The notes under the pieces: model-generated
What the model saw: only the letters and a program-made list of their open reading frames with translations
What the model was told of the DNA's origin: nothing
The model's database searches: none
Virus record (IMG/VR): IMGVR_UViG_3300020391_000001
Span: 1 to 59,212 of that record
DNA from: a virus
Taxonomy: Duplodnaviria; Caudoviricetes
DNA length: 59,212 nucleotides
Direction: 5' to 3' (one strand)
Shown: piece by piece, positions 11,572 to 45,808 of the stretch
Layout of the letters: every line of letters begins with the position of its first letter
Numbering within the stretch: position 1 is the first letter of the stretch
Translations under genes and position numbers: made by a program

Positions 11572-11572
11572 T

Positions 11573-19858: not shown

Positions 19859-20294
19859 ACCTCTTGTAAGCATTCTACCTCTTGAACCAAAAGATATAGA
19901 AACTTTTTGGCCCCTAGCAGAATTTATGGTTACTGAAGCATTAGCTTATTCTGGAAAATATGCAGATGCAAAATGGGTTCATGATGAATTAAAAAAAGAC
20001 CTAATGCAATGTTGGATTATGTTTGGTTCTGATGAAGATGAAGAAAACAAAGTGTTTGGAGTATGTGTTGGAAGAATAGGTGTATTGCCTAACTTTAATC
20101 AATATGAGATTGTAATATGTACAGGCAAAAGAAGAGATTTATGGGAAGATAATTTAGTTAAAACAATTACTGATTTTGCTTTAGTAAACAGTTGCAAAAG
20201 ATTAAGCATTATGGCTAGACCTGGCTGGGAAAGAGTATCAAAACAGTGGGGTTGGAAAAAGAAACATGTACAATTAGAAAAATGGATAGGATAA
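19830..20294 (+). CDS. GNAT-fold-like protein
   Basis: Size, position among ejection genes, and the CKRL...ARPGWER motif. Confidence 0.5.
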   Translation: MASANKKRIKPLVSILPLEPKDIETFWPLAEFMVTEALAYSGKYADAKWVHDELKKDLMQCWIMFGSDEDEENKVFGVCVGRIGVLPNFNQYEIVICTGKRRDLWEDNLVKTITDFALVNSCKRLSIMARPGWERVSKQWGWKKKHVQLEKWIG

Positions 20295-20298
20295 AATT

Positions 20299-21153: not shown

Positions 21154-21160
21154 GAGGTCT

Positions 21161-23380: not shown

Positions 23381-26300
23381 TGAGCCAATTTATAGATAAT
23401 TTACAAAAAAAATTAGATAGTAACACTATAAATCCTAATGATTTAACTAATGATCAAAGAATGATTATTGATGAATTAATCAGAAGAGGAGAGTTAAAAG
23501 GCCCAACGATGGAGCAACTTGGTGAAATGCGTGAAGGAGCGACTGAAGAGATTGTTTCAGAAAGAGAATTTTTACAAGATCCATTAAAAGCAGCAACAGG
23601 AGTAGGTCAACCTACTTATGAACTTACTGGAGATATTGCAGGTAGTATATATCCATACGTTGCAAATAGAAAAAAAATATTTAGAGCTGCTAAAGAGGGA
23701 ACCTTATTGGGTAAAGGTCCAGGTTTTTTTGCTAAGTCTGCAATAAATGTTGCGGATAAATTACCTGGTAGATTTAAATTTTTTGGTAGTGCTTTAAAAG
23801 GTATAGGCAGACTTGTAGATCCATTATCTAGAGCATACAGAGGACCATTGCTTAAAACAGAGGTACAATCTGTTTTAGGAGGCACAGTTGGTGCAGGTGT
23901 TGGAGCGTTTACTTATGATACACTCAATGAGCAAGCAGGTGTTGAGATTGCATCAGCTTTAGCTGATGACCTATCAGAAATTCCAGAGGGAGATGTAGAA
24001 AGAGATCAACTTACAAATACAGCTGTTGCTATGAAGAATGCTATGCTGTGGAATACAGGAGCTTCATTATTATCTCCATTTTTATTCAGTCCTATAAGCA
24101 AAGGTATAAGAAATCTTTTTGGAACTGTAGGACCAAAACAAAAAGAATTAGCACAATTTGCAAGAGACAAAGGTTTACCATTACCATTGCTATCTGGATT
24201 AAAAGAAGGACAGGGTACTTTTTCAGGTCTTGGTAGAAATTATTTTAAATTTATGGGTGTATTTCCATTAGTAGCTCCTATTGGTAAGGTTGCTAAATCA
24301 GAAGCAGAGATTGCGGGTGGTAAAAGATATCTTTCAGACCTACAAGCATATTCTCCATTACTTAAAGTTAGTGCAATTAATTCATCTGTAAGACAACAAG
24401 CAGAAAAAGTATTTATCGAAAATGTAGATTTATATAATAGTGCCTATAAAACTTTTGATAATTTAGCTGCAACTTCAGGTAACCCAAGAATAATAAAATT
24501 AGAAAAAACACAAAAAGCTGCAAGAGAATTTTTAGATGAAAATGTAGCTCAGTTTCCTGAGTTTGAAACTTATATACAAGGTTTCGGTGATTTAAAACCA
24601 ATGGATATTGAAAAAGTATTGACTCTACAAGGAGATCCTATCAATTTATTTATGAAGGCTATGATAGGTATAAGAGATGGGTTAATTACACCAAAACAAT
24701 ACAAAGGTGTGATGACAATGCTTAACAATGCCATAGAGGGTAGTAGATATTCAACATTAAAAAATAATATGTTTATCATGAGAGAGGCTATGGAAACTGA
24801 CTTTGCTAAATTTGGTGAAGATATTTACAATCCAGGTAAGTATTTAGAAGACGAAGGTATCAAAGCAACTTACGATACTATAGCTGCACAAAGTGGTAAA
24901 CCTCTAGCAGATCAATACATACAACAAAATATTAAAGCTGCTGAACAATTAAAAGGTCAACTTTTAAAAGCAAATAAAATATTTGCAGACGTACAGGGTT
25001 TTTACCAGCTATCACCATTAGTAAGAAGTCTCAAAAAATTTGATAGAAATGCATTTACAGCTAAAAGTCTTGAAGGATTTCAAGGTGCAGGTACACAATA
25101 CAGAGATCAATTTTTTAAGGATCTAGGTCAAAATGTTTTCGAAAATGATTCTGTAGATGCAGTAGTACAGTTTAAAAAATTAATTGGAGCCGAACCATCA
25201 AGAGAAATAGGTGCAAAAGCCACACAAGGTGGTAAGGATTTATTTAGAGCTGTGCAAGCTAAATATGCGTTTAACAAATTCTTGAGAGCATTTAGTAGTC
25301 CATCAGATGCAGGTGCTAAATCAGTATGGAATTTTATAGATGAAGATTCATCTATAAATGCAGGTGCTTCATATTTATCTGATACATTAAAAGTTATGAC
25401 AAGAGATCAAAAAAGAAATTTAAAAGATTTTAGTATCGAAAGTGTAAAAAGAAACAACGGTATATTCAATACAACAGAATTAAAATTTGGTGGAGATGAC
25501 TTTGCTGAGTTTAGTGCAGATAAATTTATGGCTTCTTTCGGTATTAAAAATTCTTTTGATGAGGGAGGTAGAAGAAAAATACAATATATGCTTGGTGACA
25601 AAGGCGCACAAGAATTTTATAATTTTGCATCGTATATGAAAGCAATTGGTGAAACAAAACTATCTGATCCATCTCAGTTTTTAGCTAGAAGACTTACACT
25701 AGGTGGTGGTATTGCAGGTGGATTAATATTTGGTGCACCTGGTCTATTAGCCTCTGCTGCATTACTATTATTATCTAGAAGAGCAGGACAAATATTGACT
25801 GATCCTGTAGCATTAAGAGCTATGAATGATGCCTTGTTACCTGATGAAACACTTAAATTATTAAGAGGTGAAAAATTAGGAACTGGTACAATAAAAGCAA
25901 CGTTTTTACCTGGGAGAGATTATTATTCAGGCAGAAGTGTTCAAACCATAGTAGATGCTTTAAAGACAAATACTATACTTGGTAAGACAAAAGCTGTGAC
26001 TGAATCTGCTATGAAGCTTGGAATGACAAGAAAAAGAGATGCATTGGCAAGACTTATTAATTATTTAGGAGAAGAAGACAAGGATATACCTAAAGTTGAT
26101 CCAAATACTATTAGCGAGGCTGAGATAATAGAAAGAATATCTAATCTACCTATGTCCATACCAGAACCTTTATTTAAAGATAACATACCTCAAGTAGTAG
26201 AAGAAAATATGTTTGCTGATTTTAGTGAGTCATCTGGTGATGCACAAGAAGATAACAATCTAGTATCTATGATAAACAGATCCATACAAAATAATGCAAC

Positions 26301-26496
26301 TGTTGAGAGTGAAGAAGTAGAAAGAGATGCAGAAGAGTTTCAATCAGTAGTTGGTGATTTACAACTTCAAAACCCTGTTGCACAAACACCACAACAGAAC
26401 ACCGGACAAGTTACATCACAACAAGTGGCTGATTTATTTCCTAACGATCCAACTGCAATAGCTGCAGCTAGAAGAAGAGAAACACAAAATGTCTAA
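23380..26496 (+). CDS. Largest putative ejection protein
   Basis: 1038 aa helical protein with hydrophobic Gly-rich segments; ends the structural module. Confidence 0.6.
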   Translation: MSQFIDNLQKKLDSNTINPNDLTNDQRMIIDELIRRGELKGPTMEQLGEMREGATEEIVSEREFLQDPLKAATGVGQPTYELTGDIAGSIYPYVANRKKIFRAAKEGTLLGKGPGFFAKSAINVADKLPGRFKFFGSALKGIGRLVDPLSRAYRGPLLKTEVQSVLGGTVGAGVGAFTYDTLNEQAGVEIASALADDLSEIPEGDVERDQLTNTAVAMKNAMLWNTGASLLSPFLFSPISKGIRNLFGTVGPKQKELAQFARDKGLPLPLLSGLKEGQGTFSGLGRNYFKFMGVFPLVAPIGKVAKSEAEIAGGKRYLSDLQAYSPLLKVSAINSSVRQQAEKVFIENVDLYNSAYKTFDNLAATSGNPRIIKLEKTQKAAREFLDENVAQFPEFETYIQGFGDLKPMDIEKVLTLQGDPINLFMKAMIGIRDGLITPKQYKGVMTMLNNAIEGSRYSTLKNNMFIMREAMETDFAKFGEDIYNPGKYLEDEGIKATYDTIAAQSGKPLADQYIQQNIKAAEQLKGQLLKANKIFADVQGFYQLSPLVRSLKKFDRNAFTAKSLEGFQGAGTQYRDQFFKDLGQNVFENDSVDAVVQFKKLIGAEPSREIGAKATQGGKDLFRAVQAKYAFNKFLRAFSSPSDAGAKSVWNFIDEDSSINAGASYLSDTLKVMTRDQKRNLKDFSIESVKRNNGIFNTTELKFGGDDFAEFSADKFMASFGIKNSFDEGGRRKIQYMLGDKGAQEFYNFASYMKAIGETKLSDPSQFLARRLTLGGGIAGGLIFGAPGLLASAALLLLSRRAGQILTDPVALRAMNDALLPDETLKLLRGEKLGTGTIKATFLPGRDYYSGRSVQTIVDALKTNTILGKTKAVTESAMKLGMTRKRDALARLINYLGEEDKDIPKVDPNTISEAEIIERISNLPMSIPEPLFKDNIPQVVEENMFADFSESSGDAQEDNNLVSMINRSIQNNATVESEEVERDAEEFQSVVGDLQLQNPVAQTPQQNTGQVTSQQVADLFPNDPTAIAAARRRETQNV

Positions 26497-26677
26497 AGAA
26501 GCATTAAATAAAATAGAAGCTCATGAAAAGCTTTGCCGAATCATGCAAAAACAAACGCATGATAAGATAAATAATTTAGAAAAATCAGTTAGTAGATTAG
26601 AAAAGATTTTGTTGACTTCCGCAGGTGTATTAATTACAGGTATGGCATCAGTCATAATTGTATTGATTACTAGATGA
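26489..26677 (+). CDS. Small membrane-anchored coiled-coil protein
   Basis: HEKLC coiled coil plus a C-terminal TM helix. Confidence 0.65.
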   Translation: MSKEALNKIEAHEKLCRIMQKQTHDKINNLEKSVSRLEKILLTSAGVLITGMASVIIVLITR

Positions 26678-27354
26678 AACTAATAAAAAAATATCCTTAC
26701 AAACATTACAATAGATTCTCAGACACAACCGGAAGAAAATATTTAGTGGATAATATAAAAGTTCCAAGCGTGACAACTATATTGAGTGCAACTAAAGATA
26801 AACGTTTCTTAGAAAATTGGAGACGTAAAGTTGGAGATGCAGAAGCAGATAGAATAATGAAACAAGCATCAACAATAGGAACCGAAATGCATCAAGTATT
26901 AGAATATAAATTAAATGGTCAAGGATATTATAATGCCATGGAGGAGGGAACTAAACCAAGAATGATGGCTAAAACAATTTTAGATAATATTAAATTAGGT
27001 GAAATATGGGGTAATGAAATAAGTTTGGAATATAAAAATAAATTTGCAGGCACGTGTGATCTCACAGCAATCTGTTATGGAAAGCCAAGTATAGTGGACT
27101 GGAAACAAACTAACAAACCTAAAAAAGAAGAATGGGTTGAAGATTATAAATTACAACTTGGTGCTTACTATTTAGCACATACAAAAAATTATGGACCTAT
27201 TGAACAAGGTGTCATATCTATGTGTACCAGAGATTTACAATACCAAGAATTTAAACTTAATGAACCTCAATTAAAAGAATATGGAGATAAATTTTTAGAA
27301 AGAGTTGAGACTTTTAATAAAATTATAAAAAATGAAAGTTCTAATAGCATGTGA
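26674..27354 (+). CDS. PD-(D/E)XK exonuclease
   Basis: PSVTTIL...GTEMH...E...AGTCD...IVDWK...QLGAY. Confidence 0.9.
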   Translation: MKLIKKYPYKHYNRFSDTTGRKYLVDNIKVPSVTTILSATKDKRFLENWRRKVGDAEADRIMKQASTIGTEMHQVLEYKLNGQGYYNAMEEGTKPRMMAKTILDNIKLGEIWGNEISLEYKNKFAGTCDLTAICYGKPSIVDWKQTNKPKKEEWVEDYKLQLGAYYLAHTKNYGPIEQGVISMCTRDLQYQEFKLNEPQLKEYGDKFLERVETFNKIIKNESSNSM

Positions 27355-27913
27355 ATACTCTGGAACAGTCAGAGACGCATTTACAAAAAAAGGTCACGAA
27401 GCTGTAAGTTGTGATGTAATTCCAACTGAATCTCCGGGTAAACATATTCAAGATGATGTTTTAAATCATTTATATAAAGATTGGGATTTAATTATAGCTC
27501 ATCCACCTTGTACTTATTTATCAAACGCAGGTGCAAGACATTTATATCCTAAAGGTAAACTAAACCAAAATAGATATAAGAAAGGTTTAGAGGCTAAAAA
27601 ATTTTTTATGTGTTTTCATAATTTAGATTGCAAAGTTGCAATAGAAAATCCTGTTCCTTCCACTATATTTGAGTTGCCAAAATATAATCAAATAATACAA
27701 CCTTATGAATATGGACATCCCTTTCAGAAAAAAACTTGTTTGTGGTTAAAGAATTTACCTAAATTAAATCCAACTAATATTATGAAATTAAAAGAAAGCT
27801 CTAAAGTGCCTGGTAATTGGTTTAATAAAGGTGGTAAAGAAAGACAAAAAAATAGAGCTAAATTTTTTTCTGGAGTAGCTGAAGCTATGGCAGATCAATG
27901 GGGTTCTTTATAA
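27332..27913 (+). CDS. Short C5-cytosine methyltransferase-like protein
   Basis: VLIACEYSG, SCD, IAHPPCTYL (PC catalytic motif) and IENP. Confidence 0.75.
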   Translation: MKVLIACEYSGTVRDAFTKKGHEAVSCDVIPTESPGKHIQDDVLNHLYKDWDLIIAHPPCTYLSNAGARHLYPKGKLNQNRYKKGLEAKKFFMCFHNLDCKVAIENPVPSTIFELPKYNQIIQPYEYGHPFQKKTCLWLKNLPKLNPTNIMKLKESSKVPGNWFNKGGKERQKNRAKFFSGVAEAMADQWGSL

Positions 27914-29335
27914 TAACCAGCTTTTAAGATCTTCTTCACCCAATGTTTTAGCAGCAAGCTTACCTTTATTAATAAGTGATTTCATAATTGCTTCATCAAG
28001 AGTATTCCTAGCAACAATGTCTATGTAAACAACAGTTCCTTTTTGTCCAAGTCTGTGAGCTCTATCCTCTGATTGCATTCTTACCTCTAAGTTATATGAG
28101 TTTGAATAATAGATAACAGTATTACAAGCGGTAAGAGTAAGACCAAAACCCCCAGTAGTAGGATTAGCAACCATGAAACGACAGCTGTCATCATTCTGTA
28201 TGCGATCTACTGCATTTTTCCTATCTTCAACACTGACGTCACCATAAATAAAAACAGTGGATTCTTTACCATACTTAGCTATCAAAAAATCTTTTATTTC
28301 ATGGATATTATATAAATAATTAGCCCAAATAATTACTTTACCATCTGTTTCTTCTAAAGTTTCTTCCAATGCATTAAGCTTAGATTTATGTAATTGAAGT
28401 ATTTTACCATCGTCATCTTTAGTAAACCCATTGCAAACTTGATGCAACTTAATTATTTCAGTCAATTTATTAGAAAAAGATATAGTGCTATCTTCTACAA
28501 TAGCTAAAGCATGTATTCTAAGTTTTTCATAAATTTTTTTACCCTCACCATCTAATTCAATATATCTTTTAGACCTTACCTTCGGTTTTAGATCTAAACA
28601 TTGATCTTTTCTAATCCGAGTTGCAAATAGTTTCATCTTTTCTTCTAATTCCTCTAATCTTTTGTAGTATTTAGGAACCGATATGTATCTTCCAGAACCG
28701 ACTGGTATATCAGTCATTTCAGCGTATCTGTTACGAAAAGCCAAATAACTATGAAAACCTAATAATTCTGGACTTAAGAACTGACATTGTGTAAATAGAT
28801 CCAATGGAGATTTTGTTATTGGGGATCCTGTTAATATACGCTTTATATGACATAATTTTCCTAGTGATAAAATGTTTTTTGTTCGTTTTGCTGATCTGTT
28901 TTTTATTGTGGTTGATTCATCCAATGCTACAAAATTTAATTTATTTTTTCTGAGATAATCAATACAACCTTCATAACCACGTTTTGTAGATAGTGCCTCT
29001 ACATTGATTAGAAAGATTCTAAGGTGGGGTGATTCGTTTAATTTATAATAATCTTTGGATTTATCTATATTCCATTTATAAATTTTGTATTTTACTTGAT
29101 CAGGCATATGTGTTTCTATTTCAGATTGCCAATTCGTATAAACTGTTTTTGGTGCTATAATTAATGCAGATAGTATTTTTCTTTGAAAATATAAAAAAGC
29201 TATATTATCAATAGTTACTTTAGTTTTACCTGTACCCATTTCCATAAAATAAGCCCAGTTGTTTTTTTCAGCTGATTCTTTAAGAGCATTTCTTTGATGC
29301 TCGTAAGGCATCGTCTTATACGGATATATCCACAT
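27908..29335 (-). CDS. SNF2-family (SF2) helicase
   Basis: MEMGTGKT, LDEST, LTGSP, QSEDRAHRLGQ; start could extend to 29371. Confidence 0.92.
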   Translation of the reverse strand: MWIYPYKTMPYEHQRNALKESAEKNNWAYFMEMGTGKTKVTIDNIAFLYFQRKILSALIIAPKTVYTNWQSEIETHMPDQVKYKIYKWNIDKSKDYYKLNESPHLRIFLINVEALSTKRGYEGCIDYLRKNKLNFVALDESTTIKNRSAKRTKNILSLGKLCHIKRILTGSPITKSPLDLFTQCQFLSPELLGFHSYLAFRNRYAEMTDIPVGSGRYISVPKYYKRLEELEEKMKLFATRIRKDQCLDLKPKVRSKRYIELDGEGKKIYEKLRIHALAIVEDSTISFSNKLTEIIKLHQVCNGFTKDDDGKILQLHKSKLNALEETLEETDGKVIIWANYLYNIHEIKDFLIAKYGKESTVFIYGDVSVEDRKNAVDRIQNDDSCRFMVANPTTGGFGLTLTACNTVIYYSNSYNLEVRMQSEDRAHRLGQKGTVVYIDIVARNTLDEAIMKSLINKGKLAAKTLGEEDLKSWLL

Positions 29336-29403
29336 CAAAAACTTTTTATATTTTTTAATTGCAAAGATCAATTAAATAATTTAAGGACGCATAGGAGGAA
29401 AAT

Positions 29404-29943
29404 ATGGATATAGAAAAAATGTCTAAATTAGACATTAGTCAAGATAGTGTTAAATCTATTTCTGACAAATGCAACAATCTTAAAAGTTTAAATTTACAAA
29501 TAAAGCAAGAAGAAGAAAAACTTTCATTGCTCAAACATAAAGCTAGAGACATGGAAGAGAGAATAATTCCAGAGATGATGCAGGAAGCTGGTGTATCTTT
29601 GTTGAAGTTAAGTGATGGTTCGACAGTAGAAGTCAAACCTTTTTATGCAGCAAAAATTCCTGAATCAAGAGTTGACGAAGCCTTTTCATGGTTAAGAAAT
29701 AGAGGTTATGAGGATTTAATTAAGAACACCATAACTGCATCTTTCGGAAGAGGACAAGACAATCAAGTCTCGGAACTAATAAAAGTTTGTGACGATAATG
29801 GTTTTGCTTACAACAAAAAAGAAAAAGTAGAACCTATGACGTTAAAAGCTTTTGTTAGAGAACAGGTCGAAGGTGGAAAAGAATTACCTTTTGATTTGTT
29901 CGGTGTGTACATCGCAAATAAAACTAAGATAACGAACAAATAA
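29404..29943 (+). CDS. Conserved replication-module protein
   Basis: AGGAGG SD; AFSWLR...LIKN...PMTLKAFVRE. Confidence 0.75.
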   Translation: MDIEKMSKLDISQDSVKSISDKCNNLKSLNLQIKQEEEKLSLLKHKARDMEERIIPEMMQEAGVSLLKLSDGSTVEVKPFYAAKIPESRVDEAFSWLRNRGYEDLIKNTITASFGRGQDNQVSELIKVCDDNGFAYNKKEKVEPMTLKAFVREQVEGGKELPFDLFGVYIANKTKITNK

Positions 29944-29954
29944 TAGGTAACAAT

Positions 29955-30749
29955 ATGAAAATAAGAGACGGACAATCGAACGAAGTAGCGATTAAAAAAG
30001 AAGCAGGAGCACTTGCATCAGTTGATATTGAACAATTTGCTGATTCTGGTTTTGATAATGTAGATTCAAAGAGTTTAGCATTACCATTCCTTAAAGTTCT
30101 TGGTCAATTATCACCACAAGTAACTATGGGTGATAGTAATTTTATAGAGGAGGCAAGACCAGGAATGATTTATAATACAGTGACTGATCAACTATTTGAT
30201 GGTTCAAAAGGTATTAAGGTTATACCTTGTTATTATAAGTTGGAGTACATTGAATGGAGAGATAGAGGCCAGGAGGGTAGCTCTGCTCCAATAAATGTAT
30301 ATCCTGCAGACTCAGACATTATGAGTAAAACCACTAGAGGTGATGATGGTAAAGATAGACTTGAAAACGGTAATTACATCGAGGAGACAGCCTCTCACTA
30401 TGTAATGATTGTAGAAGAGGATAAATCATCAACAGCTTTAATTACTATGAAATCCACACAAAGAAAAAAATCAAAGAAGTGGAATTCAATGATGATGTCT
30501 TTAAGGCAGAAAAAAAAGGATGGCAAAGGATTCTTTAAACCTGCTCCATTTACTCAAAACTACTTGATGAAGACAGTTCTAGAGAAGAACAATCTTGGAT
30601 CATGGTATGGTTGGGAGATTGAGCATATAGGCACTGTGGAGAGCGAAGAAACAATAAAAGCAGCTTTTGAGTTTTATGGAACTTGTAAAAAAGGTGCAGT
30701 TAAAGTTAACCACGGAAAAGAAGAATCGGTAGAAAAAACTCCATTTTAA
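29955..30749 (+). CDS. Putative ssDNA-binding / annealing protein
   Basis: LPFLKVL..LSPQ, MKSTQ.K.SKKWNS; C-terminal ...TPF; lies before the primase. Confidence 0.55.
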   Translation: MKIRDGQSNEVAIKKEAGALASVDIEQFADSGFDNVDSKSLALPFLKVLGQLSPQVTMGDSNFIEEARPGMIYNTVTDQLFDGSKGIKVIPCYYKLEYIEWRDRGQEGSSAPINVYPADSDIMSKTTRGDDGKDRLENGNYIEETASHYVMIVEEDKSSTALITMKSTQRKKSKKWNSMMMSLRQKKKDGKGFFKPAPFTQNYLMKTVLEKNNLGSWYGWEIEHIGTVESEETIKAAFEFYGTCKKGAVKVNHGKEESVEKTPF

Positions 30750-30750
30750 T

Positions 30751-32322
30751 ATGGACCTACTTGACAAGACCCTGGAGGAGTTTGTAGAACTCTTTCAGGG
30801 ATCTTCTACATATTTTGGATGTTCTGCTCCTACTGGAAATAAAAATTCTAAAGGTAAAGCTGAGTTTAAACATTGGGTTGAACCTAAACCTATGACAAAG
30901 GATCATTGGGTTCAACACTTAAAAGGAGAAGCTTACTATGGATCAGTTCCCATTCGAGATGATAATACATGTAGTTGGGGGGTCATCGATGTTGATCGTT
31001 ATAATATACGCCATCAAGACGTTATATCCGTTATTCGTAAAAGAAAATACCCACTCGTCCCATTCAGATCAAAATCCAACGGACTCCATTTAATTTTATT
31101 TATCAAGGGTGTTGTTGAAGCATCTTCAATGAGAAAAAAATTAATTGAGATTGCGTCTGATTTAGGTATCAACGACACAACCACAGATATTTTTCCTGCA
31201 CAAGATGAAGTAGATTTAACTCCTGATGACTGGGATGAAAAAAGAAAAGGCAATTTCGTTAACCTTCCATATCAAAAAGCAAACATTCCTACACGAGTTG
31301 CAATGGATGATGAGTGTCAATCGATTAAAATAGAAGATCTATATAAGTTTGTTACAAAGTTTAGACTTACACCAGAAGAATTTAAAAAAATAAAAATATT
31401 TCAAGATGATGAAACAAAAGACTACCCACCTTGTGTTGTAAATTTTATGAAGAATAAAGTACAGAAAGGTGAGGGAAGAAATGATGCTATGTTTAATGTA
31501 GCAGTGTTAGCTAAAAAAATTAACCCAGATCCTGTTATGTATCAAGAGTGGACAAGAGACATGATGGATAAGGTTTGTAGTGAAAAACTTCACCCAAAAG
31601 AATTACAAAATATTTTTAAGGGTGTGGAAAACAAAGAGTATGCTTATAAATGTAAAACTTCTATTGCACGAATGCATTGTGTATCAAGTGAGTGTATTAG
31701 AAGAAAGCTTGGAATAGGTGCAAACGAGGCCTTGCCAGAAGTTGGTAAACTAATTAAAGTAAATTCATATCCAGAACCTTATTGGATACTACCTATTCAA
31801 GGTAAATCAATTAGACTATCAACAAAACAATTATATCAACAGCAACTATTAGGAGAACAGCTTTTAAATTATGATATTGTATGGCGACCCTTGAAGCCAA
31901 CTAAAAGAGATCCAGACCCTTATAGAGATTGGCTAGATGAACTTATTCAAAATAAACAAGACATGGAAGGATTTGATGCAGGAGAAGAAAGCAGCGATGT
32001 GTTTAATTCTAGGATGTCTAGATTTTTAGAAGACGTTGAAGATACTACAGAATTTGACCAGATTGATTCTGGTAATATATGGCGTGATGAAACAGAAATG
32101 CGTTTTAAATTAGAAACGTTTAGAGCATTTATGAAAAAAATGAGTTACAATTGGAATGAAAAAGAGTGCACAAGATTTTTAGAACAAGGTGGAGCAAAAC
32201 CAAAAGCCAAATTCAAAGGATTGCAATCAAGGCATTGGGTTGTTGTTTTACCAAAACAAAGCGAACATAAAAATAAAGATGTCAAATTTACTAAAGCAAA
32301 GGCTGCGTGGGAAGACAATTAA
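30751..32322 (+). CDS. Primase-polymerase (AEP-like) with PriCT-like domain
   Basis: IDVD, RSKSNGLH, NLPY, PPC...GEGRNDAMFN. Confidence 0.8.
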   Translation: MDLLDKTLEEFVELFQGSSTYFGCSAPTGNKNSKGKAEFKHWVEPKPMTKDHWVQHLKGEAYYGSVPIRDDNTCSWGVIDVDRYNIRHQDVISVIRKRKYPLVPFRSKSNGLHLILFIKGVVEASSMRKKLIEIASDLGINDTTTDIFPAQDEVDLTPDDWDEKRKGNFVNLPYQKANIPTRVAMDDECQSIKIEDLYKFVTKFRLTPEEFKKIKIFQDDETKDYPPCVVNFMKNKVQKGEGRNDAMFNVAVLAKKINPDPVMYQEWTRDMMDKVCSEKLHPKELQNIFKGVENKEYAYKCKTSIARMHCVSSECIRRKLGIGANEALPEVGKLIKVNSYPEPYWILPIQGKSIRLSTKQLYQQQLLGEQLLNYDIVWRPLKPTKRDPDPYRDWLDELIQNKQDMEGFDAGEESSDVFNSRMSRFLEDVEDTTEFDQIDSGNIWRDETEMRFKLETFRAFMKKMSYNWNEKECTRFLEQGGAKPKAKFKGLQSRHWVVVLPKQSEHKNKDVKFTKAKAAWEDN

Positions 32323-38220: not shown

Positions 38221-38290
38221 AATATCCTTGCATATCCCATGAAAATAATTATATTAGGAGTATTAATAATAATAACAAAGAGGAGGCCGC

Positions 38291-38554
38291 ATGGCAATAG
38301 TGACAAACAGTTCAACATCAAGCACGGTTAAATATCAAGAACCACTTAAACTAACACCAGACCTTGAAGCCACAGATTTAGATGTAGCATTAGATAATCT
38401 TGCAAAAACTTTGGCAGGACTTTTAAAAAACATGGATGAGTTACAAACTAATCTGACTAAACTTACAGAACAAAATAAAAGATTAAAAAAAGCTGTGGTG
38501 CAATTATCAGATAGTCCAATGCAAGATTTGGAGAAGATACTTAATGAAAAGTAA
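38291..38554 (+). CDS. Coiled-coil hypothetical protein
   Basis: AGGAGG SD; downstream of a TTGCAT..TATATT promoter. Confidence 0.7.
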   Translation: MAIVTNSSTSSTVKYQEPLKLTPDLEATDLDVALDNLAKTLAGLLKNMDELQTNLTKLTEQNKRLKKAVVQLSDSPMQDLEKILNEK

Positions 38555-38895: not shown

Positions 38896-39108
38896 ATGGA
38901 CATAAACAAATGGAAGTCTTGTGCAGTTGATATCGAATCATATACAATAATTAGAGCGATGGGTTCAAATGGTTTTAGAAGACCAGGCAATATGATTGCA
39001 AAGTTGGTAGACGAAGAGATTAAGAAGATAGCAAAGAAAGAGGGCATACCTTATGCTAAAATGAAAGAGAACTTACTTAATCAAGGAAAGAAACTCTTGA
39101 ATGGGTAA
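38896..39108 (+). CDS. Small protein, possible ribbon-helix-helix regulator
   Basis: AAGGAG SD; KWKSCAV strand followed by two predicted helices. Confidence 0.55.
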   Translation: MDINKWKSCAVDIESYTIIRAMGSNGFRRPGNMIAKLVDEEIKKIAKKEGIPYAKMKENLLNQGKKLLNG

Positions 39109-39122
39109 TAGCCTCCACTGGC

Positions 39123-39154
39123 GAAAAGGGGTCGGGAGACTGGCCCTTTTTTTT
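39123..39154 (+). terminator. Rho-independent terminator
   Basis: AAAAGGGGTCGG-GAGA-CTGGCCCTTTT plus a T run. Confidence 0.85.
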
Positions 39155-39155
39155 C

Positions 39156-39184
39156 TTGCAATTAAATTTCAAATAAAATAATAA
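39156..39184 (+). promoter_or_regulatory. Sigma70-like promoter
   Basis: TTGCAA-17 nt-TATAAT. Confidence 0.7.
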
Positions 39185-39291
39185 TCAATTACGTATTCCT
39201 AAGCCTAAATGAGATAAGTGGGGCTTTCAAAACACTTTATTTTCACCGAACAACGAATCATAAAATTAACTTTTAATAAAAGGATTATTTT

Positions 39292-39543
39292 GTGGGTAAA
39301 GCTGTAAAAAAAGGCAGCGAAGAAGCATTAAATCAAGCTTTGGACAAGCTAGTAATGGTGTGTCCAAATAAAAAAACTTATGATGAGTTAACAAGTTTGA
39401 TGTTTCAGTTGTATTGTGGAAATGACTTTGGTTTAGGAAATTTTAGTCTTTCTTTCCTTGATAAGATCGAGGATAGATGGCGATCAGGACGTAAAACTGC
39501 TGCGCAAGCTAAAGGCATAAAACTGGTCGTTAAAAATGTATAA
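39292..39543 (+). CDS. Hypothetical protein
   Basis: GTG start with AAGGA SD. Confidence 0.65.
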   Translation: MGKAVKKGSEEALNQALDKLVMVCPNKKTYDELTSLMFQLYCGNDFGLGNFSLSFLDKIEDRWRSGRKTAAQAKGIKLVVKNV

Positions 39544-39581
39544 CCACGGTGTAATTTTTCCATATCATCTTTTCCCGCATC

Positions 39582-39815
39582 GTGGTTATGCGAATGAATA
39601 CAAAAGTCTCTAATAGATTATTAAAGCATTCTATTGTTCTGCTCACCGTTATGACAGGTGAAGAGAAGATGAACTATTTAGAACGTATGTGGGATTTGTA
39701 TATCGAGGTATACACCACTCCTAAATTTAGAAAAAAACCTTCACGGACTTATGAGATGGATAAATTAAAAGCTTATGACTTGTGCTCCAAGCTTACTAAA
39801 ATTTTTGGGCATTAA
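39582..39815 (+). CDS. Hypothetical protein (start uncertain)
   Basis: Fills the gap in a + strand operon. Confidence 0.5.
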   Translation: MVMRMNTKVSNRLLKHSIVLLTVMTGEEKMNYLERMWDLYIEVYTTPKFRKKPSRTYEMDKLKAYDLCSKLTKIFGH

Positions 39816-40200
39816 GTTGAGCCTAGAGATTACACGACCTAAAGCCTACGCTGAACAGAGATTGTTTCAGGCGATACTTGTGCAGGCCTTAGAAGATGCA
39901 ATTAATCCGTCTAATTTTAAAAAAGAAACGTATCATAAACATGATAGTCATTGTTGGTTTTTAAAAAATTCTGATGATTTTCAACGTGTGTGTTGGGGAG
40001 CTGAGATGGACCCAGACTTTGTACGTGGCGAATATAAGAAGTTGATTGAAATTGGTAAAATAAAGTTTACTAAATTACAATCTTCATGGATCCGTTATCG
40101 AGATTTGTATAAACGTTATCGTAATGCAAGTAATAAGGAAGAAAGAAGAGAGATTAGAAAATTAATTAATGAAGAAAATTTTGAAAGGTTAAAGGAGTAG
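39775..40200 (+). CDS. Hypothetical protein, possible transcriptional regulator
   Basis: EQRLFQAILVQALEDA...WF...DFQRVC..AEMDP motif. Confidence 0.6.
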   Translation: MTCAPSLLKFLGIKLSLEITRPKAYAEQRLFQAILVQALEDAINPSNFKKETYHKHDSHCWFLKNSDDFQRVCWGAEMDPDFVRGEYKKLIEIGKIKFTKLQSSWIRYRDLYKRYRNASNKEERREIRKLINEENFERLKE

Positions 40201-40403
40201 TCACGGAGGTCTAATATATTTGATCCCTGGGGGAACTAACCAGAGAGCAAGTAAACCCCCAAGAATCGAGCAAAGAACGTGTATTAAACAAATAAACACA
40301 TATTCACTGTACACGAAAACCGGACACCGGACAAATAGAAAAATTTTACTATATAGATATCTCAGACTAATGATTAATAAAAAGTACCCCAGGGGGTAAA
40401 AGA

Positions 40404-40510
40404 GGTGTATCTGGTGTATCTAAACGTCTATTAGTCAATTATACCAATACTTTTAATCAATTTTAGTGGTGTATCTATGGTGTATCCGTGGTGTATCTAG
40501 GATACACCAC
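40404..40510. repeat. Iteron-like GGTGTATC repeats, probable replication origin
   Basis: Direct copies at 40404, 40413, 40468, 40479 and 40490; inverted copy at 40501; non-coding with AT-rich flanks. Confidence 0.75.
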
Positions 40511-40581
40511 TCTTGCGGGAACGCTATCGAAACTTTTTGGGGCTATTACTATAGGTTGAAATAATCTATATAATAAAAATT

Positions 40582-40746
40582 ATGAACAAAAAACAAATTT
40601 ACGTTGTAGATATGATGAATCGATTCGGTAAGGATCGAATCAGAAGAGCATTAACTCAAAGAAGATTTAAAAATAAAAAAAAAGTTGAAGAACGTAAAAC
40701 AGGGCAAAAGAATTTTGGATTTAAAAAAGGTGGTATGAATAAATAA
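40582..40746 (+). CDS. Small basic protein ending FKKGGMNK (54 aa)
   Basis: TAATG-coupled to terS. Confidence 0.6.
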   Translation: MNKKQIYVVDMMNRFGKDRIRRALTQRRFKNKKKVEERKTGQKNFGFKKGGMNK

Positions 40747-41276
40747 TGCCTGGTGGACTTAAAAAGAAATCATTAAGAACTGAACTTGATCTAACTCCTA
40801 AACAAAAAATGTTTGTAGAGATATACGTAAAAGATTGGGGATCAATTACACAAGCTGAAGCACTTAAACGTGCAGGCTATGTTTGTACTAATGAAAGAGA
40901 TTATGGATCTGTTGCATCTAGAATGTTATCCAGAAAGCATAGTCCACATATTGCAAATTATTTTGATAAATTATTTGATCTTGAAAAAAAGAAATACGAG
41001 AGTGACAACTTAAGAAGATTTAAAAGATTAGAACGAATTTCTGACAAAGCTGAGAAAGATAAACAATACGCTGCTGCTATAAATGCTGAATATAGATCAG
41101 GTCAATTAGCAGGCGCATATGTAGATCGTAAAGAAGTAACTGTCAGTGGTTTGGAGGGTATGTCACGTGAACAACTTGAGAAAAAACTTGAGGAACTGTC
41201 AAACAAGATCGATGGATACAACGCTAAAACAATCGAGATTGAGTCAGAGGACGTTACAGCAATTGAAAAAGGCTAG
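40746..41276 (+). CDS. terS: Terminase small subunit
   Basis: LTPKQKMFVEIY...A..RAGY...ASRML helix-turn-helix pattern. Confidence 0.8.
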   Translation: MPGGLKKKSLRTELDLTPKQKMFVEIYVKDWGSITQAEALKRAGYVCTNERDYGSVASRMLSRKHSPHIANYFDKLFDLEKKKYESDNLRRFKRLERISDKAEKDKQYAAAINAEYRSGQLAGAYVDRKEVTVSGLEGMSREQLEKKLEELSNKIDGYNAKTIEIESEDVTAIEKG

Positions 41277-41350
41277 CTGGTCTGATTGGTTAGACGCATT
41301 CAATCAAGTACATAACTCTACAATGTTTACATCTGTAGGTAAGATTAAGG

Positions 41351-41659
41351 TTGAGATTGATGATTAGAAAAAGAATTGCGATGCCAAAGAAAGTTAAACA
41401 GGAGATTGATAAGTATCCAATGGTTTCTGTTGAATGGTTCGATATCGTTTCGGATTCTTCGTGGTCTTCGTTTTCAGATGTAAAGAAAGCCAAGCTAGCT
41501 ACTTGCATAACCAAAGGTCACCTTCTCTCCCAGGCAAAAGGTGTTACAAGAATTTTTGGAGATTATTCTTATAACGATAATAAAACAGAGATAGAATCAA
41601 TTGGTAATACAACTCTTATTCCTAATTCTGTAATTAAAGAAATCAAAAAACTTACTTAA
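41351..41659 (+). CDS. Conserved phage hypothetical protein
   Basis: VEWFDI..DSSW...GHLL...IGNTTLIP. Confidence 0.7.
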   Translation: MRLMIRKRIAMPKKVKQEIDKYPMVSVEWFDIVSDSSWSSFSDVKKAKLATCITKGHLLSQAKGVTRIFGDYSYNDNKTEIESIGNTTLIPNSVIKEIKKLT

Positions 41660-41661
41660 TC

Positions 41662-42069
41662 ATGAGTAATAAAAATGGGGAGTCTAGGCTATGGCAAAAG
41701 GTAAAAAAAGGACTGACTGATTGCTTTCTAACTCGCATAGAATCTAGCACAATTAATGGTATACCTGATATTCATGCAGTCATGAATTCTGAAATTTTTT
41801 GGATTGAACTTAAATCAGATTCATTAAGTTATCCTAAGCTAAATAAGTGGCAAATTGTTTGGATCAACAAATATATTAGGACAGGTGGTAAGGTAATTAT
41901 CTTCAAAGAGACCCTCTTGCAGAAGTCTCTTAAACTGTACAGACCGGTGTCCGTGTTTACTGATCCTCGTACCCTCGTTGCATTTGCCTCTTTCTCGTTC
42001 CCGTTACAATGGCCACTGGTCCAGCAGGCGATGCTAACGGAGCTGGGACGGCAGCCCGATGCAGCATGA
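41662..42069 (+). CDS. VRR-NUC / Holliday junction resolvase-like nuclease
   Basis: E..LW...RIES...GIPD...WIELK...Q..W. Confidence 0.8.
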   Translation: MSNKNGESRLWQKVKKGLTDCFLTRIESSTINGIPDIHAVMNSEIFWIELKSDSLSYPKLNKWQIVWINKYIRTGGKVIIFKETLLQKSLKLYRPVSVFTDPRTLVAFASFSFPLQWPLVQQAMLTELGRQPDAA

Positions 42070-42295
42070 TCCTCGTTCTCGTTCCCTGGCCACTGAACTT
42101 TTCCCTCTTTGTTTGTTCAGTGGCCTGGGATCCAGCAGCAGGTGATACCGAAGCTCGTTCTCGTTCTCGGTAACCAGCAAATGTCGTTTCTCGTTCAAGG
42201 AACTGGTGAGCCAGCAGCAGCACGAAGCTGGGGCTACCCCGTCAGGAGCTGATAGCTGGTATGAACTGCTACGTTAAAAATACTTCGTTGGGCTA

Positions 42296-42324
42296 TTGAC
42301 ATGTATCCCATGATATCTTATATG
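42296..42324 (+). promoter_or_regulatory. Sigma70-like early promoter
   Basis: TTGACA-17 nt-TATATG, with ATCCCAT in the spacer. Confidence 0.65.
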
Positions 42325-42378
42325 TATAGTTTCCCCTCAGCAGGGCGAACTACAGTTAACAAACAAAGGAGAAAAGAT

Positions 42379-42594
42379 ATGAAGCTCGGAAAATTAATTA
42401 AGAAACTTAACAAGGAAAACTCACCGCCGGATGGTTGGTCCGCTACAGATGCTGTAGACAAACCTGAAGGAGGCAAAGTATACGCACTAACTGGATCTCG
42501 GGGCTCGCGCTGCATTGCAAACGGTAATACTTGGGCCGAGTCTGAGGTGAAGGATCCAGCAGCAGCTGATGCTGGAGAAGCTAAGTGGGACTAG
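42379..42594 (+). CDS. Putative early protein
   Basis: AAGGAG SD before ATG 42379. Confidence 0.65.
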   Translation: MKLGKLIKKLNKENSPPDGWSATDAVDKPEGGKVYALTGSRGSRCIANGNTWAESEVKDPAAADAGEAKWD

Positions 42595-42781
42595 TTCTCG
42601 CTTACCTGTGCATGCTGTTCCTTTTCCCAAACTTTACTTTACTGGTATCAGGACTCCTGCTACTCTCGCTCGTTGGTATCCTGTGACGCCGTCCTCGTCT
42701 CGTTCTAGAAGACTGGCTGGGCAGCACACGGATCCATCAGAAGCTGGGGCTTTCACAGAAGTTCAGGTTCGGGTTTTGCAG

Positions 42782-42798
42782 TTTAGAATGATTCTAAA
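42782..42798. promoter_or_regulatory. Palindromic operator matching the Irr/ICE box
   Basis: TTTAGAA-TGA-TTCTAAA, 9 nt upstream of a TTGCAA -35 element. Confidence 0.6.
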
Positions 42799-42868
42799 AG
42801 ATAATTGTTGCAATGGTCATGGGATTTGATAAGATGAAGTTGTCTAATAAATAAAGGAAAGGAAATTT

Positions 42869-43294
42869 ATGGGATTAGATCAACACGCACATCTTCGTGG
42901 TCATAAGGTAGATTGGGAGAAATACTATGAAGATGATAAAGAGGAAAACGAAAAAGTTTTTGTGTGGAGAAAACACGCAAGACTTCAACAGTTCATGTCA
43001 ACTAAATGGAATGAACAAAACACTAACCACGAACATAAAGGAATGCTTTCACATCTCGGTTTTAATGGAGATGATGACAGTCCTGTTTATATAACAGAAG
43101 AGGTGGCGAAAGAGTTAGCCGAACAAATCCAAGAGGGGTACAAGGATTATGTTGCCGAAGATGGTTTCTTCTGGGGTCAGCAGTTCCAAGAGGAAAGTGT
43201 TAAAGAATACAAGGAACAAGACATCAAGTTCCTAAAGTTTTGTCAACAAGCGATCAATGATAAAAAGGTCGTTGAATATTGGTGTAGTTGGTAA
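42869..43294 (+). CDS. Conserved phage early protein
   Basis: MGLDQ...WRKH..LQQFM...FFWG...YWCSW. Confidence 0.8.
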   Translation: MGLDQHAHLRGHKVDWEKYYEDDKEENEKVFVWRKHARLQQFMSTKWNEQNTNHEHKGMLSHLGFNGDDDSPVYITEEVAKELAEQIQEGYKDYVAEDGFFWGQQFQEESVKEYKEQDIKFLKFCQQAINDKKVVEYWCSW

Positions 43295-43512
43295 TGGCTA
43301 AAAAATTTAAAAAAGACGAGGCGACAGATGTCGCCTCGTTCTCGACAAAGAAAGACAAACTTAAGATTACTAAGCTAGAGCGTGGCACGGCGCAGCAAGA
43401 TGCGTTCTTAAATTATATAATTAAATCGATTGGAGATGACAAAGATGTAAGTATTAGTATTGAGGGAGGTAAAAGAATACCTATTAAAGACTTAAAAAAA
43501 AAAATTAATTAA
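43288..43512 (+). CDS. Hypothetical protein
   Basis: Coupled to the previous gene (probable ATG 43294); contains a perfect hairpin at 43316-43339. Confidence 0.5.
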   Translation: MVMAKKFKKDEATDVASFSTKKDKLKITKLERGTAQQDAFLNYIIKSIGDDKDVSISIEGGKRIPIKDLKKKIN

Positions 43513-43573
43513 GGGGTTGCATAAGATGAGATAAGATATATATTCTTACTGTCAAACAAACAAAGAGGTAAAA

Positions 43574-43897
43574 ATGGCAAATGCAATAAAAAAGTTAAGG
43601 CAAGATGAAAAGAAAGTAGTTCTTGCTTATGCTCAGTTAAAGCTAAAGTCTAATAGACTTGCTAAAGAGTTAGACACAATGAAACAGAATGTTGTTGATG
43701 TGTTTAATAGATCAAACCAAAACTTAATCATAGTTCAAGATGAACATGGAAATAGTTTTGGCTTACAAAAAATAAATCGAAAGAGAAAGAAATTTGAAAC
43801 TGCTAATTTCAAAATTGCTCATAATGATTTATTCAACAAGTTCTGTACTGAATTAGAGTACAGCGAATATAAAGCGATAGGGGATAACAATGCCTAA
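43574..43897 (+). CDS. Putative early protein
   Basis: GAGG SD; own TTGCAT..TATATT promoter at about 43517-43545. Confidence 0.7.
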   Translation: MANAIKKLRQDEKKVVLAYAQLKLKSNRLAKELDTMKQNVVDVFNRSNQNLIIVQDEHGNSFGLQKINRKRKKFETANFKIAHNDLFNKFCTELEYSEYKAIGDNNA

Positions 43898-44329: not shown

Positions 44330-45808
44330 ATGAAAATTGAAAACCTTACTGAGGAAGAATTAAAAGATATTATTCTAAAAAAACAATTAGAGTGGATCAA
44401 GTTATGCCAGGATAATTTTTTGGTATTTGCTGAATCTGTTTGGCAGGATTTTATTTATAGAAAAACAAAGGACCCAAAGAAATACGGGCACCATCAAATT
44501 ATTTCTGAAGCGTTTCAAGATATTGCAGATGGAGACGCAAAGAGGCTCATAATCAATATGCCTCCACGACATACTAAATCAGAATTTGCATCTTATTTAT
44601 TTCCTGCTTGGTATGTTGGAAAGTATCCAAAGAAAAAAATAATGCAGGTATCACACAACGCTGAACTTGCTTCAAGGTTCGGTAGCAAAGTTCGGAACTT
44701 AATGAACACCAAAGAGTATAAAGAGATATTTGGAAATGTTACACTTAGAGAAGATAGTAAAGCAAAAGGTAGGTGGGAAACCAATCACGGTGGTGAATAC
44801 TTTGCAGCGGGTGTAGGCGGTTCGATTACAGGACGAGGGGCCGATTTGCTTATTATCGATGATCCACATACTGAGCAAGATTCTATGTCTGACTCAGCTA
44901 TGGAACGTGCTTATGAATGGTATAACTCTGGACCTAGACAACGTTTACAGCCAGGCGGAAGAATTTTGGTAGTCATGACACGATGGGCTACTGATGATTT
45001 GACAGGAAGATTAGTGAAGGCTCAAGGAGAGGTAAAAGCGGATCAGTGGAAAGTAATTTCTTTTCCTGCAATCATGCCCAACGATAAACCAGTTTGGCCT
45101 GAGTATTGGAGTAAAGATGATTTAGATTCTGTGAAAGCCTCAATCTCTACAAAAAATTGGAATGCACAGTATATGCAGGACCCAACCTCAGAGGAGGGTG
45201 CAATTATAAAAAGGGATTGGTGGCAGGATTATGATAAGGAGTATCTTCCAAAACTGCTACACGTGATACAATCCTATGATACTGCATTTTCTAAAAAAGA
45301 ATCCGCTGATTACTCTGCTATTACTACGTGGGGTATCTTTGAACCTGTACAAGGCTACGAAAAATGCATAATTCTTCTTGATGCTATGAAGGGTAGATAT
45401 GATTTTCCAGATTTAAAAAATGTTGCTTTAGAACAATATAATTATTGGGAACCTGAAACAGTTATTATTGAGGCCAAAGCTTCAGGACAACCTTTGATAC
45501 ATGAGCTTAGACGTGCAGGCATTCCTGTAGTTGATTTTGTGCCAGCTCGTGGAAGAGACAAGCATACACGTATTAATAGCTGTGCACCTGTATTTGAGTC
45601 TGGTATGGTGTTTGCACCTTTAGATGAACACTGGGCACAAGAAGTTATTGAGGAATGTGCATCTTTTCCTAATGGTCAGTATGATGACTATGTAGACAGT
45701 ATGACCCAAGCTGTGTTAAGATATAGGCAAGGTGGATTTGTTTCTACATATTCTGACGATTGGGATGATCCGCCAATGAAATTAGAAAAAGAGTATAAAT
45801 ATTATTAG
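44330..45808 (+). CDS. terL: Terminase large subunit
   Basis: MPPRHTKS (Walker A), IIDDP (Walker B), MTRW, SYDTA, DDYVDS. Confidence 0.96.
   Translation: MKIENLTEEELKDIILKKQLEWIKLCQDNFLVFAESVWQDFIYRKTKDPKKYGHHQIISEAFQDIADGDAKRLIINMPPRHTKSEFASYLFPAWYVGKYPKKKIMQVSHNAELASRFGSKVRNLMNTKEYKEIFGNVTLREDSKAKGRWETNHGGEYFAAGVGGSITGRGADLLIIDDPHTEQDSMSDSAMERAYEWYNSGPRQRLQPGGRILVVMTRWATDDLTGRLVKAQGEVKADQWKVISFPAIMPNDKPVWPEYWSKDDLDSVKASISTKNWNAQYMQDPTSEEGAIIKRDWWQDYDKEYLPKLLHVIQSYDTAFSKKESADYSAITTWGIFEPVQGYEKCIILLDAMKGRYDFPDLKNVALEQYNYWEPETVIIEAKASGQPLIHELRRAGIPVVDFVPARGRDKHTRINSCAPVFESGMVFAPLDEHWAQEVIEECASFPNGQYDDYVDSMTQAVLRYRQGGFVSTYSDDWDDPPMKLEKEYKYY

Follow-up and report, generated by a model that had tools for sequence, protein, structure and literature searches.

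Three conserved RNA hairpins around the small terminase gene of an HTVC023P-type pelagiphage, one of them with a loop complementary to phage ribosome-binding sites

The stretch of DNA analysed here (the window; IMG/VR record IMGVR_UViG_3300020391_000001, 59,212 bases) is a complete genome of an HTVC023P-type pelagiphage, that is a phage of SAR11, with terminal repeats present. Between its replication module and its packaging and structural genes lie three hairpins, termed a (39538-39591, plus strand), b (40222-40267, minus strand) and c (42083-42130, plus strand), which are real, evolutionarily conserved structures of the RNA type. The loops of all three have a conserved pyrimidine-rich core, and the core of hairpin c is complementary to the ribosome-binding blocks of two phage genes. 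An initial annotation of the sequence had proposed that the hairpins together form one system of small RNAs (sRNAs) that silence early phage or host messages by masking their ribosome-binding sites (RBSs). We give roughly even chances to another overall reading, in which the hairpins are not one sRNA system and act as three independent devices, hairpin c as an anti-RBS element, hairpin a as a coupling element in cis and hairpin b as the 5' part of an sRNA or antisense RNA.

Relatives of the window were collected by scanning IMG/VR with the small terminase, which returned 349 related stretches, of which 80 were kept. Hairpin c as an exact pattern was found in 69 stretches, and in at least 119 with a looser pattern in which the loop was left free. 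Unique homologous sequences were extracted for each hairpin and then aligned (n=32 for a, 40 for b and 42 for c). Fold energies were expressed as z-scores against 200 shuffles and pair changes were tested against 500 shuffles. Hairpin-like geometry, defined as a stem of at least 10 base pairs (bp) including G-U pairs and a loop of 8-30 nucleotides (nt), is not enriched on the two strands of the window: 137 nested records were counted, and 20 dinucleotide shuffles gave 124.8 +/- 15.2. The case for the three hairpins rests on their stability and, above all, on their conservation in relatives; their geometry alone is unremarkable.

Hairpin c consists of a 4-bp outer stem (42083-42086/42127-42130), a U-U mismatch, a perfect 11-bp inner stem (42088-42098/42115-42125) and a 16-nt loop (42099-42114). 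It folds at -31.0 kcal/mol, with a z-score of -6.3 on the plus and -6.5 on the minus strand. In the 42 unique relatives 8 of its 15 pairs have changed on both sides (46 cells), a result that none of the 500 shuffles equalled, and controls in which the alignment was slid were paired in 26-52% of cells only. Hairpin b has a 12-bp stem including two G-U pairs and a 22-nt loop with the conserved core UUGCUCYCU. It folds at -24.2 kcal/mol (z -4.0, 0/200 shuffles as good; z -2.6 on the plus strand), and 6 of 11 pairs were found changed on both sides among the 40 unique relatives (0/500 shuffles as good). RNAalifold, run on the minus strand of 15 sequences, recovered hairpin b independently and nothing besides. 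Hairpin a has a 15-bp stem (39538-39552/39577-39591) and a 24-nt loop (39553-39576) whose 3' part, AUCUUUUCCC, is conserved. It folds at -20.9 kcal/mol (z -4.7, with no shuffle of 200 as good) and the opposite strand does not stand out (z -0.4). Its arm sequences are very conserved in the 32 unique relatives, and the changes seen are almost all wobble-compatible and are so on the plus strand only. The positions, folds and pyrimidine-rich loops given in the initial annotation are in this way borne out for all three hairpins. None of the three was reported by a terminator scan; their loops span 16-24 nt and no U run follows the stems, and intrinsic (Rho-independent) terminators were rejected as an explanation.

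The strand of each hairpin is indicated by its G-U pairs in relatives. Cells that form a valid G-U pair only on the plus strand versus only on the minus strand number 66 and 1 for hairpin a, 0 and 48 for hairpin b and 24 and 0 for hairpin c. Accordingly, the fraction of cells paired when read as plus or as minus strand is 93.3% against 79.8% for a, 88.4% against 99.3% for b and 95.7% against 91.7% for c. Because the G-U pairs are one-sided, hairpins a and c were assigned to the plus strand and hairpin b to the minus strand, which upholds the strands first proposed. The same one-sidedness argues for RNA and not for sites in double-stranded DNA.

The loop core of hairpin c (CCTCTTTGTT, 42104-42113, plus strand; CCUCUUUGUU as RNA) is the proposed anti-RBS sequence. 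It was invariant in 42/42 of the unique sequences first aligned, with the flanking loop columns varying; in 14 more distant loci the loop carries CCUCUUAGUU (DNA CCTCTTAGTT) instead. The core is the exact reverse complement of AACAAAGAGG, a 10-mer that occurs three times in the window, in two leaders and as loop c on the opposite strand, against 0.24 occurrences expected, and 0/100 shuffles had three. Both leader copies are the ribosome-binding blocks of promoter-proximal genes. Complementarity was evaluated further against 90 phage translation starts using 1000 shuffled loops. The first candidate target is the leader and ribosome-binding block AACAAACAAAGAGG (43555-43568, plus strand) of gene 43574-43897, where 14 contiguous nt match loop c plus 2 nt of its stem, a length equalled by 1/1000 shuffled loops; with the 18 loop bases alone the match is 12 nt (8/1000). 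The second candidate is the ribosome-binding block AACAAAGAGG of gene 38291-38554 (38274-38283, plus strand, 10 nt). A weaker site of 11 nt in the window is the leader AACAAACAAAG (42358-42368, plus strand) of gene 42379-42594. Complementarity to these same three leaders had been noted before and is confirmed here at the lengths given.

Homologues of these genes in relatives were found at the protein level with tblastn, blind to the motif, and each leader was compared to the loop of its own locus. For the 43574 homologues at least 10 nt were complementary in 40/42 unique pairs (range 7-16 nt), an earlier run over fewer loci having given 32/32, and for the 38291 homologues in 4/4 of the relatives that extend that far. 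Leaders of the 42379 homologues reached 10 nt in just 2/23, and this gene is probably not a conserved target of loop c. Eight control genes gave no pair of at least 10 nt among the 29-63 pairs available for each. Similarly, the starts within the operon of hairpin c itself (small terminase, 41351 and nuclease gene) matched the loop over at most 9 nt (46-63 pairs each). Divergent loop types lengthen the match to 14-16 nt, as in UUUUACCUCUUUGUUA against UAACAAAGAGGUAAAA over 16 nt, in a count that is biased since these sites were picked by motif. In sum, the anti-RBS idea is plausible for hairpin c alone of the three, as judged from these comparisons.

The 3' untranslated region (UTR) of the nuclease gene (41662-42069) contains hairpin c, which begins 14 nt past the stop; the stop columns read TAG in 20, TGA in 11 and TAA in 10 of 41 relatives. 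As neither a promoter nor a terminator of its own was found, hairpin c would be transcribed as the 3' end of the nuclease mRNA. We infer transcription, timing and regulatory outcome as follows. The core CCUCUUUGUU, displayed single-stranded in the nuclease-gene 3' UTR, would pair with the AACAAAGAGG ribosome-binding blocks of 43574 and 38291, presumed first genes of two other transcription units, and would block their translation. It would do so in trans or by long-range pairing on read-through transcripts. Promoter-like elements precede all three of the genes considered above, TTGCAT-N16-TATATT at 38228 and at 43517 and TTGACA-N17-TATATG at 42296, the last being kept in relatives as TTGACA-N17-TATGGT. 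If these are early promoters of the host polymerase and the small terminase operon is transcribed later, an order that is presumed here, hairpin c would be a timing switch. In its fullest form, the proposal is that hairpin c acts as a 3'-UTR RNA which, following transcription of the terminase-nuclease operon, silences the leading genes (38291 and 43574) of two early operons driven by sigma-70, as a temporal switch. It would be part of a GC-rich 'RNA hub' between the terminase genes, a place that in sister phages holds other structured RNAs and strand-specific hexamer arrays, and hairpin b would add to this control region a second sRNA, made from a promoter. This extended form is tentative and we consider it somewhat doubtful.

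The promoter-like elements at 38228-38255 and 42296-42324 have a spacer motif in common, ATCCCATGA, of which relatives keep TTGACAGGTATCCCATGATGTCGTATGGT, and the minus-strand promoter predicted for hairpin b has a similar GGTATCC right after its -35 box. The shared motif may mark an operator, or else a class of promoters specific to the phage.

Hairpin a is built around two codons. The stop codon of gene 39292-39543 (39541-39543, plus strand) lies inside the 5' arm as the first three bases of the stem core and pairs with UUA 39586-39588. Its columns alternate between TAA (18), TAG (12) and TGA (2) in the 32 relatives, and for this reason it is taken to be a genuine stop. The start codon of gene 39588-39815 (39588-39590, plus strand) lies inside the 3' arm, where its A39588 is paired to the stop's first base, U39541. 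This ATG is kept in 32/32 relatives, as is a second in-frame ATG two codons later. The N-terminus of the product, MxM...LLK.SI, is kept in 51 unique contexts with in-frame indels, and no Shine-Dalgarno (SD) sequence precedes the start in the alignment of the 32 relatives. Because it is built around a stop and a start codon, hairpin a is better read as a cis element, and we read it, from its layout, as an intercistronic translational-coupling device. The fold would bury the start of gene 39588-39815 and set it beside the upstream stop, and a ribosome finishing gene 39292-39543 would melt the stem so that the downstream gene is translated only then. In MS2 and in several bacterial operons a downstream start is held in a stem that is opened by the ribosome ending the upstream gene. 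Hairpin a resembles such coupling hairpins in that a single stem holds the stop and the AUG on opposite arms, ahead of a gene without SD. It differs from the MS2 type in that its stop and start are 44 nt apart and joined by the fold only, across a 24-nt loop with a conserved pyrimidine block. As a guess, the tract AUCUUUUCCC in this loop is a ribosome standby or S1 site.

Two further explanations of hairpin a were tried and rejected. A bypass of the T4 gene 60 type is not indicated, as none of the take-off codons (GTA, GCT, AGC, GGC) is matched by a landing codon in frame and the protein made from the downstream gene begins at a conserved ATG of its own. A pseudoknot or downstream partner for the loop was not recovered either; the longest complements within 300 nt were 5-9 nt at shifting positions in 51 contexts, and no conserved complement of AUCUUUUCCC was found downstream or elsewhere in related loci.

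Hairpin b is preceded on its own strand by a predicted sigma-70-type promoter (40306-40334, minus strand) with a -35 box TTGTCC (40334-40329), a 17-nt spacer and a -10 box TACAGT (40311-40306). The pattern TTG(T/C)CC-N17-TAnnnT is present in 42/44 unique contexts, the remaining 2 having TTGTTC, and the spacer is always 17 nt. The -10 box occurs as TACAGT, TACACT, TATAGT, TACATT, TATACT, TACAAT and TATAAT. Positions 1, 2 and 6 thereby never change, and variation confined to positions 3-5 is, at the level of sequence, the behaviour of a real -10 element. From the positions of the boxes a minus-strand start is expected at about 40299, which would place hairpin b at about +32 to +78. The motif complementary to the loop, AGRGAGCAA as read on the plus strand, is nearly always found within a hairpin whose stem sequence varies among relatives; by eye, 30/32 unique contexts fall inside hairpin b or divergent versions of it. 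We read hairpin b as belonging to the 5' portion of an RNA, either an sRNA or an antisense RNA. From the conserved predicted promoter, which lies in the gap ahead of the small terminase gene, a short transcript would arise with the hairpin near its 5' end, and this RNA may continue as antisense to the 3' end of gene 39775-40200. Also on the minus strand, at 40375-40398, a terminator-like hairpin, ACCCC(CU)GGGGU followed by CUUUUUAUUA, is kept in relatives and hints at a second short minus-strand transcript, which would come from the iteron region.

A number of results weigh against this reading of the hairpins as three independent devices. For hairpin c, the best duplex energy of the loop is -18.3 kcal/mol against -16.5 +/- 1.9 for shuffled loops, of which 28/200 were as good, and for any CU-rich loop there will be some purine-rich start site to pair with. 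The use of shuffled controls, one of the checks proposed in the initial annotation, thus favours loop c by match length and not by energy. Covariation between loop and leader, another of those checks, was mixed. In the 14 loci where CUUUG in the loop has become CUUAG, the leaders remain AACAAAGAGG at 9 sites in 9 loci, one locus has two compensated AACUAAGAGG sites and 4 loci have no site. In these variants a second loop change moves the match toward the start codon, to AAGAGGUAAAAA, such that at least 10 nt are complementary in 5/7 unique pairs, and the other 2/7 fall to 7 nt. The loop block and the leader block could each be conserved for separate reasons. Neither a promoter just upstream of hairpin c nor a terminator after it was found, and hairpin a likewise has neither. 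For hairpin a, covariation is weak, with 1 pair changed on both sides and 91/500 shuffles as good; in addition, coupling does not account for the conservation of AUCUUUUCCC. For hairpin b, the promoter falls below the threshold of the consensus promoter scan, which itself is at shuffle level (26 sites in the window against 27.2 +/- 5.6) and hence uninformative overall. No terminator 3' of hairpin b was found by the terminator scan or RNAalifold, and no target for its loop among the 90 phage starts, the longest match being 7 nt, which 973/1000 shuffles equalled. Finally, the transcript evidence is indirect: in metatranscriptomes (4 marine runs from 2 studies), contigs from close relatives cover 39414-39598 with hairpin a and 41985-42160 with hairpin c, and strand and RNA ends are not readable from contigs and carry-over of DNA is possible, which makes them a weak hint of presence in RNA libraries. 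The interval 39920-40291, including hairpin b, was covered by no contig of those four runs, which is uninformative either way.

The hairpins may instead be protein-binding or processing elements of mRNA, their loops being read by ribosomal protein S1, a phage RNA-binding protein, a ribonuclease or an RNA-stability factor, with the complementarity of loop c to leaders a by-product of separate selection for a pyrimidine tract in the loop and for an SD in the leaders. We regard this as unlikely. Covarying stems with conserved loops would suit protein operators equally well, hairpins a and c both begin at or shortly after a stop codon and the energy test for loop c is not significant. Moreover, hairpin c lies amid strand-specific arrays of the hexamer CTCGTT (10/10 plus-strand copies in 41974-43340) that suggest a sequence-specific binder. 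The limits of the conserved loop block of hairpin c, 42104-42113, are nevertheless exactly those of the leader-complementary block, and variants in the loop flanks lengthen the complementarity while control genes show none. Neither was a candidate RNA-binding protein identified among the neighbouring genes.

That all three hairpins belong to one system of trans-acting antisense sRNAs, with CU-rich loops masking the RBSs of early phage or host genes as first proposed, appears quite improbable. The loops are indeed all pyrimidine-rich and conserved, hairpin b has a predicted promoter of its own, loop c has specific complementary leaders and loops a and c have the octamer CUUUUCCC in common. Silencing of this kind is however not indicated for a and b. 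The longest match of loop a to the phage starts was 10 nt, equalled by 168/1000 shuffles, and that of loop b is the chance-level match given above. In duplex energy 50/200 shuffles were as good as loop a and 145/200 as good as loop b, and relatives have no conserved complementary site for either. Hairpin a is furthermore locked to its stop and start codons. The octamer CUUUUCCC has 3 genomic copies against 2.85 expected by chance. Covariance models for hairpin c (R1) and hairpin a (R2) showed no shared family; run on the whole window they returned self-matches only and no further copies, and on HTVC023P 8500-18800 and HTVC027P 11579-30946 they gave nothing significant. An action of the inverted repeats as DNA, as cruciforms or single-strand hairpins in pac/cos or replication sites or as protein-binding palindromes near the terminase genes, is very improbable despite their position near GGTGTATC iterons and hexamer arrays on either side of the small terminase gene and the highly conserved arms of hairpin a with little true covariation, as the strictly one-sided wobble pairs are not selected by double-stranded sites or cruciforms, stems b and c change sequence yet keep pairing and hairpin a is codon-phased.

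Matches to known RNAs and to other genomes were few. At gathering thresholds no Rfam model matched anywhere in the window, and a permissive Rfam search (E up to 10) of 39000-43600 gave 4 chance-level matches, none on the hairpins. The exact pattern of hairpin c was found on 21 unrelated contigs among 185,579 prokaryote genomes, all scoring at most 17.4 bits with R1 against 104.8 for the window, and these were set aside as chance. No SAR11 copy of hairpin c was found among the genomes scanned.

The antisense RNA c4 of P1 and P7 is a phage RNA whose loops are complementary to the ribosome-binding region of phage genes. Hairpin c, with a loop complementary to a phage RBS, is like c4 in concept, as the initial annotation had remarked; the staphylococcal systems given next are nearer. 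It is unlike c4 in being a single hairpin and not a tRNA-like fold and in its genomic context, and kinship to the c4 family is not supported, the Rfam C4 model being among those unmatched. The sRNA RsaE carries a CCCCUUUGUUU-like motif. In the nearest known kind, staphylococcal and Bacillus sRNAs such as RsaE/RoxS and the hairpins of RNAIII, a conserved unpaired UCCC or C-rich loop motif is presented on variable helices, and the motif pairs with SD regions and blocks formation of the initiation complex (PMC2790875). The likeness extends to loops a and c, which contain UUCCC, and to the loop c core, which is complementary to an SD block. A conserved loop motif on variable helices was also found here, with 8/15 pairs changed in c and 6/11 in b, the changes in a being mostly wobble. 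Hairpin c differs from the RsaE type in that it matches no Rfam model, that neither a promoter nor a terminator was found for it alone, and that it lies in a 3' UTR, on a phage of an alphaproteobacterial host.

Next nearest is icaR of Staphylococcus aureus, in which UCCCCUG in a long 3' UTR pairs with an SD region, hinders initiation and makes an RNase III substrate (PMC3868564). Like icaR, hairpin c presents within a 3' UTR a pyrimidine motif with complementarity to an SD. It differs in that the 3' UTR of icaR pairs with its own SD, whereas loop c, with at most 9 nt to the starts of its own operon, matches the first genes of other transcription units.

A structured RNA was also found in the cultured relative HTVC027P (MN698241.1, about 17753-17873; 6175-6295 of L136 in our numbering, minus strand). 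It matches the Rfam Flavobacterium-1 RNA (RF02976) at 90.2 bits against a gathering threshold of 58.9, lies upstream of gp34 in the equivalent GC-rich island between the small and large terminase genes and is unannotated in the record. Both gp33 and gp34 are reported to be highly expressed early-to-middle genes of HTVC027P (PMC12753301). The presence of this RNA means that such islands do host structured RNAs. Its consensus likewise has an unpaired UUUCCCU stretch. The window is unlike it in having no match to this family even at E up to 10 and in its architecture, and the resemblance is a lead only.

The genome in which the hairpins lie has a GC content of about 33%. Its large terminase is 69% identical in protein sequence to the counterpart in Pelagibacter phage HTVC023P, and a nucleotide search against cultured phages gave just 2 short weak pelagiphage matches. 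The replication module holds SNF2 and UvrD helicases, a primase and a family A DNA polymerase. Hairpins a and b precede the small terminase gene (40746-41276) and hairpin c follows it, ahead of the large terminase gene (44330-45808). The product of the plus-strand nuclease gene at 41662-42069 is VRR-NUC or Holliday-junction-resolvase-like, with PHROG matches at about 1e-10 (annotated DNA helicase) and 2e-7 (endonuclease) and a weak Hjc match. A tRNA scan of the whole window found none.

Hairpin c lies in a GC-rich island (about 41925-42800, 50-58% GC). The rest of the island gave no sign of a large structured RNA, its 4 segments folding at shuffle level (z -0.56 to +0.76). A Rho-utilisation site was likewise rejected, as the GC skew is merely about -0.05 to -0.1 and the G-containing hexamer is too specific. 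At the upstream end of the island the last ~40 codons of the nuclease gene (41940-42069) are GC-rich and resemble a duplicated copy of the non-coding unit of hairpin c, with 71% identity between 42007-42044 and 42118-42155. Synonymous changes and the conserved stop indicate that this 3' end is translated.

The hexamer CTCGTT has all of its 10 genomic plus-strand copies within 1.4 kb, and the longer CTCGTTCTCG, with at most one mismatch, occurs 8 times against 0.94 expected. Clusters of the hexamer are spaced about 83 bp apart and flank hairpin c. They are invariant in sequence in relatives, which have 5-16 copies each and mostly at least 8. These arrays could be protein-binding sites on RNA or DNA. 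In HTVC027P arrays of another hexamer, (C/T)CAAGC, were observed (L136 about 4950-5090 and 5810-6170, read on the minus strand) which at two promoter-like sites lead straight into the -35 box (…CAAGCTTGACA), a layout similar to that of the window, where the promoter-like site at 42296 has CTCGTT arrays upstream. Two relatives (L021 and L064) have two extra small genes between hairpin c and the 42379 homologue, each with its own copy of the same promoter-like element, which marks the region as a hotspot of small-gene gain and loss.

Just upstream of the small terminase operon, at 40402-40511, GGTGTATC occurs five times in direct and once in inverted orientation, with 82-98% conservation across 74 related loci. 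These copies may bind the terminase, as pac/cos sites, or a regulator. A basic open reading frame of 54 amino acids (40582-40746) overlaps the small terminase start and is the positional equivalent of HTVC027P gp30, named as the ribosome-rescue factor ArfA in PMC12753301. Neither Pfam nor PHROGs gave a match in support of that identity for the window's reading frame, and it was not adopted. At a distance from the region, a hairpin at 8606-8654 with a 14-bp stem and a 21-nt loop surrounds the start codon of gene 8616-10304 and may sequester its translation start.

We know of no account of how the timing of gene expression is controlled in HTVC023P-type phages. Their SAR11 hosts have very few regulators, and no RNA polymerase of their own was found in phages of this type. 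In the sole transcriptome study of an HTVC023P-type member, the early genes are all of unknown function and the temporal classes form a mosaic along the genome. The literature searched describes no pelagiphage regulatory RNA, and that on HTVC023P-type phages makes no mention of promoter, hairpin, intergenic, sRNA or antisense. The mechanisms considered here, anti-SD loops, coupling hairpins and antisense RNAs, are of already known kinds, and it is within this phage group that the elements are new. Three conserved RNA structures, one of them with named candidate targets, provide an entry to post-transcriptional control in these phages. If the proposed role of hairpin c is true, the most abundant known group of SAR11 phages would have a temporal switch based on RNA.

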